A stretch of DNA of 64,000 bases from a candidate division WOR-3 bacterium (GTDB lineage Bacteria; Hydrothermota; Tepidihabitantia; Tepidihabitantales; Tepidihabitantaceae): contig CBFGIT010000014.1 in assembly GCA_965648905.1 (NCBI GenBank), positions 14,066-78,065 on the forward strand, in the 5' to 3' direction. This document shows, piece after piece, positions 38,016 through 40,696 of this stretch; position 1 is the first letter of the stretch, and every line of letters begins with the position of its first letter. The notes below the pieces were generated by a model. That model was given only the letters and a program-made list of their open reading frames with translations, searched no databases and had not been told where the DNA came from. The position numbers were made by a program, and so were the translations under genes.

Positions 38016-38041
38016 AGGGCGGCGTGATTTCACGCCGCCCT
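38016..38041 (-). terminator. Hairpin downstream of the 38063-39985 gene
   Basis: AGGGCGGCGTG-attt-CACGCCGCCCT. Confidence 0.6.
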
Positions 38042-38062: not shown

Positions 38063-39985
38063 CTAACGGGTAAGAACGAGTTTGACTTCAGACTGTTGGT
38101 CGCCTGAGCCGACACGGCAGAAGTAGATGCCCGGACTGACCAACTGGCCGAGCTGGTCGCGTCCATCCCAGGACGAGCCGGTCAGGGTGCGCACGTGGCG
38201 GCCGCTGTTGTCGAAGATGGAGAGGAGAGGGGTTGAGGTTTCAGGGAGTCGAGGGCTCAGGTCGAAGCGGACTGCAGTGGAGAACGGGTTGGGCCAGGCG
38301 CGGACTGCGGCCCGAACCACCGTTGCCGGCGTTTCGGCGATACCGCTGCTCGGGTCAGCAGTCGTGTACTTGATGGCCCGGCCGGGCACAAGCTGAGCCA
38401 TGCCCCGATGATAGCTGCCGTCAAACAGACACTGGATGGCTACGGTCATGCTCGGGTCCTGGATGCCGATGGTGCTGCTGGTGTAGTTGTTTGCCGTCAG
38501 GTACTGTACGAGCAGGACATTGTCGCCGGTCGGCGAATGGATCGTTGTGTCGTAGATGACGAGCTCGAACTTGTCCCATTGGTCGCGTGCACCGTAGTAG
38601 TGGACGCTGTCGTACTCGATGACGAAGCGGTGATTGGCCGGGTCGTGGTAGTACCAGACGCTGTTGCCGTAGGGCGGATACAGGTCGTCCCAGTTGAGAC
38701 AGACCACAGCCGGCAGGCTGGTTGTCGGCAGGGCGGTGTTGGTGTAGGAAACATTGGTCGTATAGCCGGGTGCGACCCAGCCATTGCCGCAGATGGAAAC
38801 CTGGCTGTAGGTCTGGCCGTAGTAGTTCCAGACAAACCCTGGCGGCAGGTCGACCTGTACGGTCTGGTCGTCAGACAGAGTCAGTCTGGTGCCGATGTCC
38901 CGGATTTCGACCCAGGAGAACTCAGGATGCTGAGCATACTGGATATCAACGTCGTCGTATGCCCAGTAGCGTGCGGGTTGACGCGGGCCGTCTGGAATCG
39001 GGTCGATGGCACGGAGTTCACCGACAACTACCGTGAGGTTGAGCGTGTCAACGTAGTTGCTGCCGGTAAGAAACAGTGTCAGCGGTATCGGAGTCTCAGG
39101 CTGAATCGAGGAGCTGACCTGGGCAACGTAGGCATCGCCCTGAGCGCTGCTGCCAGGTGCGATATTGCCGTAGGCAGAAGTCGAGTCGGTCAGGACAAAC
39201 CGGGCGTCACCGGAACGAAGCAGCCCGGTAACGCTGTTTGCTGCCTCATTTCCGACGTTGCGGACGGTGACAAGCAGTTCTCCGGTCTCGCCCGGGTCGA
39301 ATCGGCCGTTGCCGTTGCCGCCGGGCGGCGGGTCATTAACCGTGCGCGTGCCGAGCACGCAGTACGGGCCACTGGCATGGCTGACAAGAGTGACGTCGTC
39401 GGCGAAGACCTTCGCCCACGGCGTCCCTCAACCGCTGTAAGTGTAGCTGAAAAGCGCGACTTCAACCCGGGCAACGTCGTCCGGGTTGACGCCCTGGAGA
39501 TTCTGGCTGAGTTCCTCGGCGATATTCAGGGTGTACTCGTTCCATGAGGGGTCGGTGATTCGGCGCAGACTGAGCACGCCGGTAGGAACCCAGTTGGCAT
39601 AGGTGGAGTAGTAGTAGCGGGTTTCGCCTAGGACTGCGTCGGTGTTGTCGAGGTAGCGGACCGTGAAGCAGGCGGCAGGCCAGCACGTTGACGAGCCGCC
39701 TCCCTCTTCGAAGCTGGCCCAGAATGACAGTTCGAGCAGTACACCCGGTACGTCAACGGTCTGGCTGAGGCGCGCCCAGCCCGGGTTGTCGTACTGGTAG
39801 GTCTGGGCCTCATAGTCCGGGTCAGGATGATAGCCCGGATCGCGGCTGGCGGTGTGCGTGCCGTAGCCGCTGTCGGTATAAATCCAGCCGACGGTCAGTT
39901 CCTGTTCGAAGTCACCGTTGGTGAGCAGGTTCTGGCCGGAACTGACCGCCAGAACCAGGAGCGGAATGAACAAGAGCTTTTTCAC
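38063..39985 (-). CDS. Secreted 640-aa candidate selenoprotein (CBM4/9-like domain + Ig-like region + FlgD/T9SS C-terminus), Sec at codon 186
   Basis: Track ORFs 39428-39985 and 38063-39358 share a frame and are separated only by TGA at 39428-39430: ...SYTYSG-U-GTPWAKVFADDVTL... Signal peptide and SD on the first part; CTD (PNPF...WDGRD...GIYF...KLVLTR) on the second; SECIS-like hairpin follows the TGA. Confidence 0.8.
39392..39425 (-). promoter_or_regulatory. Bacterial SECIS-like stem-loop
   Basis: mRNA GACG-C-CGU-G-GGCGAA[GGUC]UUCGCC-G-ACG-A-CGUC; 17 nt separate the UGA from the GGUC apical loop. Confidence 0.75.
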
Positions 39986-40135
39986 AAGACCTCCTTAGCA
40001 GGTCAGGTATATTCTCGCGGCCCGGAGCTTGTTGTCAAGCTGAGAAGTGAGCCTGCGTGCTCGAGGGGCGAGCGTGAGTTGACGCGGTCCCCTGAGCCGG
40101 AGGAACACACGACGGCCTGATGCGAGCGACTGAGG

Positions 40136-40696
40136 CTATCTGACGTGGCAGCTTCCGCCGCCGTGCCTGGCGAAGTACTTCTGATGGTACTCCTCGGCGG
40201 GCCAGAAGGTCCTGGCAGGTACAATCTCCGTGACCACCGGCCGCTTGAGCCTGCCGGACTGGTCGAGCTTCTGCTTGGAGGCGAGCGCCGCGGCCTGCTG
40301 TTCAGGTGTGTGATAGAATATCGCGGACCGGTACTGGGACCCGATATCGGGACCCTGGCGGTTCTTCGTCGTCGGGTCGTGCATGTTCCAGAACACGGTG
40401 AGCAACTGGTCGTAGCTCACAACCGCTGGATCGAAGACAATCTGGACCGCTTCAGCATGGCCGGTCTTGTCGGTGCAGACCTGTTGGTAGGTCGGGTTGT
40501 CGGTGTGGCCGCCGGTGTAACCGACAGTGGTCGAGACAAGGCCTTTGACCTGGTCGAACGCGGCCTGAACTCCCCAGAAACACCCGGCCGCGAACGTTGC
40601 GGTTTCAGTCCTGTTCACAAGTTCCTCCTTGGGTATTCCCGCATCGGCGGACAGGCCCGACACGAGCAACATCAGCATCCATGCGGTCTTGAGCAT
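40136..40696 (-). CDS. msrA: Peptide-methionine (S)-S-oxide reductase with a putative signal peptide
   Basis: AGCFWG, VGYTGG, TGHAEAV, [22 protein letters not shown]-terminal CH. Confidence 0.95.

Follow-up and report, generated by a model that had tools for sequence, protein, structure and literature searches.

In Escherichia coli fdhF, UGA140 is decoded as selenocysteine (Sec) by means of a bacterial SECIS element (bSECIS) and the SelA/SelB/SelC/SelD machinery, and the product is a molybdoenzyme. The bSECIS consensus comprises an apical loop of 3 to 9 nt with G in the first two places, an upper stem of 4 to 16 bp, a spacer of 16 to 37 nt and an MFE of -7.5 or below (PMC13188914, legend to Fig 2). 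Exported selenoproteins are also known, including a TonB-dependent receptor, the Omp28-related selenoprotein with its thioredoxin-like UxxC motif (NF045500; GOS_C in Table 1 of PMC13188914), and SaoB, SaoX and SaoC of the SAO system, which are ABC substrate-binding or small CC-tail proteins from a nine-gene locus, cut at CU in databases and with clustered S/Se atoms (10.1101/2022.07.06.499078). Here, we analyzed a 64,000-nt stretch of DNA (the window) from a candidate division WOR-3 bacterium, in which a first-pass annotation had seen a secreted selenoprotein hidden in two ORFs. The gene resembles fdhF in having an in-frame UGA, a GGUC loop and a full machinery, and differs from it in stem sequence (here a perfect 6 bp without a bulge) and in its product, a probably exported protein with a non-enzyme-looking fold. 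Its probable export is a trait in common with the SAO proteins and the Omp28-related selenoprotein, but the fold is not that of the former, for which there was no NCBIfam match here, and the protein did not match NF045500 either. Since exported selenoproteins were already known, the novelty lies in the fold and the family and not in secretion.

The candidate gene is a single frame of 640 codons on the minus strand (38063..39985), as are all window features given below, with UGA186 as Sec. It starts with GTG at 39985, with a Shine-Dalgarno sequence, AAGGAGG (39990..39996), 4 nt ahead, and ends with TAG at 38065-38063. Under the standard code, the frame appears as two ORFs of 185 and 431 aa, separated by the in-frame TGA of codon 186 (39428..39430). 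As had been proposed, the frame stays open past this TGA, for 454 codons up to the TAG, and the downstream part has no evident ribosome-binding site of its own; by eye, no Shine-Dalgarno-like run was found in the 33 nt before the GTG at 39358. A sigma-70-like promoter match, TTGACA-16-GAGAAT (40011..40038), agrees with the consensus at 10/12 positions and is a consensus match only; the region held 2 promoter-type sites compared to 0.4 in shuffles. Past the stop, a 10-bp GC-rich hairpin (38017..38040) was read from the sequence as a putative terminator, although the terminator scan did not call it, its T-run being too weak. A contig of a separate DNA run extends across the TGA; it shows 45 differences in 1168 nt, none near the TGA among those listed, and was not counted as evidence. 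The neighbors in the window, msrA, a methyltransferase DNA-binding protein and a DUF559 protein, have no evident link to the gene; msrA, which lies directly upstream (40136-40696), is the Cys form without a TGA.

An alternative is that the TGA terminates translation as a true stop, with two genes or a pseudogene as the result, that it is an assembly error, or that UGA is read as Trp or Gly throughout the genome. The genome, 3.0 Mb in size and 99.6% complete, contains selA, selB, two selD genes (each with one TGA) and a tRNA-Sec, so that the machinery on which the first-pass annotation had made its reading depend is in place. It also has prfB, and selB itself ends in TGA; UGA is therefore still a general stop in this genome, which argues against genome-wide recoding. 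What speaks for a true stop is that public gene calls end there: all 120 proteins listed in a search limited to 30 to 351 aa stopped at the UGA, as did 122 of the best 150 from a length-free search, which otherwise comprised 17 read-through and 11 partial proteins. These public calls, however, use the standard code. Among 72 loci, counted as distinct copies placeable at the column after two partial matches short of it were dropped, TGA was found in 70 and TGC in one, and the other one was without Cys, in line with the earlier expectation of TGA or Cys, and not Trp, Arg or Gly, at this codon. All 70 TGA loci, which reach down to about 34% identity, continue in one frame for a further 106 to 969 codons (four run to the end of the sequence); two genes in different frames, which would have spoken for a true stop, were not seen. 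Among 150 matches listed of 263 in all, 148 had exactly one TGA, one had two and one had none.

The genome also encodes six paralogues with a stop at this column, and a more distant seventh paralogue (contig C27, L089; TGA at 1928) has Cys-Sec-Gly with a hairpin of the same type, only 27 residues past Sec and no sorting tail. Neither Trp nor Gly was conserved at the Sec column of the 17 read-through homologues, which weighs against UGA being Trp or Gly. Sorted by eye, two of these had Cys in register (P0129, and P0123 from the TGC locus L056; such homologues are rare overall), five more had Cys in the loop, one had Cys a few residues before the loop, and nine had none. With nine of 17 lacking it, the fold evidently works without a loop Cys.

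The first-pass annotation had described a 13-bp interrupted hairpin directly 3' of the UGA (39392..39425). This hairpin does fold as 4+3+6 bp with a GGUC loop and a 17-nt spacer, but its lower seven pairs are not conserved; they hold in 105/175 cells compared to 149/150 for the upper six in 25 sequences. The conserved SECIS core is accordingly the 6-bp stem with its loop (39401..39416; loop 39410-39407), for which 419/420 cells were paired across 70 loci anchored on the loop, with compensatory changes at four of the six pairs. The predicted conservation and covariation were thus borne out for the upper 6 bp only. Pair 2 was A-U in 37 loci, G-C in 30, and C-G, U-A and G-U in one each, while pair 6 was G-C in 63, A-U in four, and U-A, C-G and G-U in one each. 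The loop read GGUC in 65/70 loci, AGUU in three and GGUU in two, and the spacer between UGA and hairpin was 17, 20 or 26 nt. On a tree built by a quick method and without the hairpin columns, pair 2 changed 10 times (10 changes on the 5' side and 9 on the 3' side). A sign test over independent pairs gave four in the same direction and none opposite (p 0.125), there being too few pairs for significance.

The hairpin also leaves its mark on the protein. A change of pair 2 affects two codons simultaneously and switches the protein between KVF and EVS, and the RVL variant stems from pair 1; in this respect, the family clearly illustrates how an mRNA hairpin can set the sequence of a protein in nature, with KVF, EVS and RVL alternating with the base pair. 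The stem Ala was encoded by GCG in 66/70 loci compared to 174/865 upstream, and the loop Val by GTC in 65/70 compared to 289/755 upstream. Both of the copies without TGA, of the 72 loci, have lost the hairpin. Applied directly, the bSECIS consensus fits the element, which has a GGUC loop, 6 bp, a 17-nt spacer and -21.2 kcal/mol, and the likeness to the fdhF SECIS noted at first pass holds up, with GGUC starting after 17 nt here and 18 nt in E. coli.

Folding energy alone was unremarkable (z of about -1.8; 7 and 13 of 200 shuffles were equally good), a point on the side of a true stop, and was rejected as evidence for a SECIS because it was not significant against shuffles. Within this genome, a loose hairpin test was passed after 368 of the 1303 TGA-ended frames of at least 250 codons, and a stricter one (GGT loop, at least 5 bp) after eight. 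A genome-wide scan for the SECIS pattern gave 139 candidates, mostly spurious among the matches listed, and the pattern alone is unspecific. The above-chance signal is the conservation and covariation across homologues, not the hairpin itself.

The homologues are labelled candidate division WOR-3. Using a single-protein search and a profile, we found the Sec domain in 107 of the 272 genomes of the phylum, and selA in 122. The domain occurred in 101 of the 122 genomes with selA compared to 6 of the 150 without; the lists were compared by hand, and this is a pattern across families of related, non-independent genomes rather than a statistical result. Five of the six genomes with the domain and without selA were checked further, of which three have selB and three a tRNA-Sec above 70 bits, while one (G171) has neither in clear form; the sixth (G203) is 76% complete. 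The profile matched 370 clusters at 50% identity, with up to 8 to 9 paralogues per genome. One locus labelled Desulfuromonadaceae sits on a 1980-nt contig and may be misbinned, and looking beyond the phylum for DNA from distant relatives gave nothing useful; cluster look-ups returned no taxon for ten distant truncated proteins. As a separate observation, three genomes from a single family (G202:C59, G204:C107, G205:C37) have a selA match broken into two pieces that keep the same frame, pointing to an insertion in SelA.

Together, the machinery, the conserved TGA, the covariation, the codon bias, the co-occurrence with selA and the in-register Cys homologues support recoding of the UGA. We therefore regard it as nearly certain that SelB would bind the 6-bp GGUC hairpin and that UGA186 would be read as Sec to give one protein of 640 aa, and we consider a true stop, an assembly error or a reassigned UGA improbable in the extreme.

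The N-terminus of the predicted protein is basic and then hydrophobic, by eye a signal peptide (about residues 1 to 17/18; 39932..39985), and most homologues have similar leaders. It is followed by the Sec domain (residues 19 to 203; 39377..39931), which AlphaFold2 models as a CBM-like jelly roll with a pLDDT of 96.7 and a galactose-binding domain-like beta-sandwich fold. In the model, the loop that holds Sec connects strands 155-165 and 172-184 (domain numbering), and the second of these, which is the last strand of the domain, lies after the UGA, just where the closing strand had been placed at first pass. A ribosome stopping at the UGA would thus release a product without the last strand and without a sorting tail; a further point against a true stop is that this strand and the sole sorting signal are encoded downstream. 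The residues N5, F8 and D178 (domain numbers), the last of them past the UGA, are invariant and E9 is nearly so. These four resemble what we take to be the structural calcium site of such CBM-type modules.

The best structural match was a phage tailspike CBM (VIA Z 15.3, 143 aligned residues, rmsd 2.3), followed by porphyran- and hyaluronan-binding modules, CBM16, CBM4, CBM61 and the Fbs1 sugar-binding domain, with VIA Z of 10 to 15, Foldseek E down to 1.5e-8 and 11 to 23% identity. These modules, CBM4/9 included, have the same beta-sandwich over the whole domain, and none of them is listed as a selenoprotein. Sequence searches were less telling: Pfam had no family for the query domain, whose sequence did not match the CBM_4_9 profile (PF02018), although 8/58 domain members did so weakly (best E 4.6e-4), and the best E in a PDB sequence search was 0.051. 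No catalytic domain was detected in Pfam and NCBIfam searches of the 640-aa protein, nor was one named by Foldseek when given the model of the whole protein (pTM 0.42).

Past the Sec domain, an Ig-like beta domain with a GNGNG-x-DPGE loop (about residues 209 to 321; 39023..39361), its strands visible in the full-length model, precedes a third, exchangeable beta domain (about residues 343 to 543; 38357..38959) recognized by homology to the tail of a C25 peptidase. The two together are 51% identical over 349 aa to the C25 peptidase tail in the same genome. Gingipain-like C25 peptidases of this genome thus have the Ig-like domain, third domain and sorting tail in common with the selenoprotein, but carry a propeptide and catalytic domain where the Sec jelly roll stands here. 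The Ig-like domain is common to many secreted proteins of the genome, the third domain is replaced by others in several homologues, and the part past the Sec domain ranges in homologues from the tail alone to more than 900 residues. Given this variable length, the Sec domain appears to be a module on exchangeable stalks.

The T9SS type A-like sorting domain at the C-terminus (38066..38308) scored 29.8 bits against TIGR04183 (cut-off 23), in agreement with the first-pass reading; the Pfam Por_Secre_tail profile gave 19.9 bits, under its cut-off of 27. The protein therefore has the two parts of a T9SS cargo, a signal peptide (called by eye) and a type A C-terminal domain. In the genome, SprA was matched above the cut-off, PorV matches were weak, and 160 frames end in a similar tail. 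Judging from these sequence features, the signal peptide and sorting domain would probably direct the protein to the surface of the cell through a T9SS-like pathway. As an observation in itself, this is a 3-Mb genome outside Bacteroidota with SprA, 160 T9SS-like tails and 27 Peptidase_C25 matches.

We next considered what Sec might do in such a domain. The first-pass annotation had suggested that it may form a selenenylsulfide with a cysteine of the TCWPAAC motif, and such a bond is still hypothetical. The only cysteines are at positions 101 and 106 before Sec186 and 209 after it; the protein has no linear CxxU or UxxC motif, and its all-beta model is no thioredoxin fold. Cys101 (in TCW; 39683..39685) is the candidate partner, being Cys in 50/70 Sec loci. 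C106 lies mid-strand and is present in 31/197 aligned rows, and C101 rather than C106 is the plausible selenenylsulfide partner as judged from the alignment. Each of the 70 Sec loci carries Cys at C101 (50 loci), immediately ahead of Sec (20 loci, three of which have both) or at most 5 residues away from it, and a further Cys recurs at position 130 in 40/70. By strand order in the model, C101, position 130 and the Sec loop probably lie at the same end of the sandwich. In distant UGA-ended representatives, Cys-Sec dominates (87/122 end in Cys), while at least 5/122 scored without any of the three tip cysteines. Switching between C101 and a Cys next to Sec takes only about two changes on the tree, and so is weak as independent support. 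Mean-field coevolution over 178 rows, few of which cover the part past Sec, gave no Sec-C101 among the top 45 pairs; the top pairs include T82-Y111 and A86-W114, which link only the first two loops.

The jelly roll would then be a scaffold presenting Sec beside Cys at one tip, the partner being C101 here and the adjacent Cys in distant members. Such a selenoprotein could also be a plain carbohydrate-binding or adhesion module, in which the binding loop is shaped by a stable structural Se-S bond in place of a disulfide, which would not survive in a reducing habitat. The top structural matches are without exception modules that bind glycans or relatives of such modules, the conserved Trp residues W84 and W114 (domain numbers) sit beside the cysteines, the stalk is common to the domain and to secreted proteases, and Cys-free versions exist. 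Still, a fold in common at 11 to 23% identity shows no function, and the retention of UGA and of a SECIS that constrains the protein in 70/72 loci, with almost no reversion to Cys, suggests that selenium chemistry matters. A glycan-binding role would also leave an operon with UxxC proteins unexplained, and we consider it unlikely.

This operon was seen when 40 loci were chosen for taxonomic spread. Nine of them contain an Omp28-like gene whose UxxC motif includes an in-frame TGA, and five of the nine also hold genes for a redoxin, DUF6029 and a membrane 4Fe-4S protein; in the other 31, as in the window, no Omp28-like neighbor is present. In the four of these with a listed gene order, the order on one strand was Sec jelly-roll genes, Omp28-like lipoprotein, redoxin, DUF6029 and 4Fe-4S, with secreted Omp28-like genes preceding the jelly-roll genes in two. 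All five operon loci belong to one family and may reflect a single ancestral operon. Relatives of the Omp28-related selenoprotein are thus operon neighbors of the jelly-roll family in some genomes; these operon neighbors scored 42 to 47 bits, and the Omp28-like proteins as a whole 22 to 47 bits, against NF045500 (Omp28_seleno; cut-off 200).

In the present genome, an Omp28-like lipoprotein gene with TGA in UxxC, followed by redoxin and DUF6029, is found on a contig other than that of the jelly-roll gene (C1 at about 118 kb, L096), and this set is the tail of the operon that holds jelly-roll genes elsewhere. A DsbD domain is also encoded. Four more TGA-split UxxC genes with T9SS-like tails (on C17/L094, C18/L095, C21 and C3), two Omp28-like and two redoxin-like, are candidates for secreted thioredoxin-fold selenoproteins. 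The picture suggests that WOR-3 selenium is heavily used in the secretome. Apart from this, one selD copy, on C4, is closely preceded by two Omp28-like genes of the Cys form (L093:5439-10669). General linkage to sel genes was rejected, being seen in 8/9 loci picked for it and in 0/40 spread loci. In six genomes picked for closeness (L076, L077, L078, L081, L084 and L085), about 12 kb at most separates the Sec genes of the jelly-roll and Omp28-like types from selA or selB, and in L076 they are directly downstream of selA.

Because the tip Cys is conserved, the operon contains UxxC proteins and partners are present in the genome, we favor a surface thiol-redox site as the function of the Sec domain, at about even chances. 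The Sec/Cys pair would cycle between selenenylsulfide and selenol/thiol at the outer end of an envelope-spanning reducing relay, which would run from a membrane 4Fe-4S protein or DsbD through a periplasmic redoxin and an outer-membrane UxxC lipoprotein to secreted UxxC thioredoxin-like proteins. It would probably serve to break disulfides in proteins taken as food, or to hold the many secreted cysteine proteases in their reduced state. A T9SS-tailed surface thioredoxin, HBP35, is known in Porphyromonas (PMC2907840). The larger proposal, that WOR-3 bacteria run an extracellular selenium redox system in which jelly-roll selenenylsulfide carriers fed by an operon-encoded relay service secreted cysteine proteases, is tentative and on the doubtful side; the genes found provide testable parts for such a relay.

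Two other uses of the tip were weighed against the surface redox site. The Sec/Cys cluster might bind a soft metal or metalloid (Cu, Zn, Hg, As), capturing it for hand-over to an outer-membrane neighbor. Cys-Sec is the commonest arrangement in distant members (the 87/122 above), with up to three further recurring Cys; CU motifs occur in SaoL, HgcA, SaoB and MbdU (PMC13188914, Table 1), and the clustered S/Se atoms of SaoB were read as a metal site (10.1101/2022.07.06.499078). In the protein studied here, however, C101 and Sec are the sole candidate ligands at the tip, the neighbors that recur have the thioredoxin fold, and the gene orders listed contain no recurring metal transporter, making metal capture unlikely. 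Alternatively, an exposed selenol might react with external sulfur species in respiration or detoxification, a form of surface selenium/polysulfide handling. A Sec/Cys enzyme does reduce polysulfide in a sulfur respirer (PMC13510729) and one WOR-3 isolate respires elemental sulfur (PMC12285271), but that isolate belongs to class Hydrothermia, and with no heme motif or cytochrome partner seen here we judge this very unlikely.

The first-pass annotation had not recognized the class as described, and within the catalogues and literature searched it does appear undescribed. NCBIfam 20.0 has no family for the Sec domain at E <= 1, Table 1 of PMC13188914 has no CBM-like or T9SS-tailed entry among its 119 selenoprotein families, and a literature search on selenoproteins in WOR-3 and on bacterial jelly-roll selenoproteins with an in-frame UGA returned no such family; Deng et al. 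2026 and BSepDB could contain it. On sequence grounds, it is a candidate selenoprotein family with strong support, absent from the catalogues that were checked, and would add a large one on a fold without a listed selenoprotein. Families with rare Cys versions may be missed by deep-Sep (PMC12013277), and the jelly-roll family would be such a case, as its Cys versions are rare and its gene calls in public databases end at the UGA.

Two further observations concern related frames. At about 78.4 kb on C1 (plus strand), a 421-codon frame and a tail-bearing 328-codon frame are joined by a TGA that lies in propeller-like sequence; the hairpin test found no hairpin there, and the pair is possibly a further selenoprotein or a broken gene. 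Finally, several large proteins (P0184, labelled Thermoplasmata, and P0193, P0199, P0210, P0253 and P0256) contain the same domain with no stop, mostly with no Cys in the loop and in one case with three copies of the domain, and are a possible source of the jelly-roll fold.
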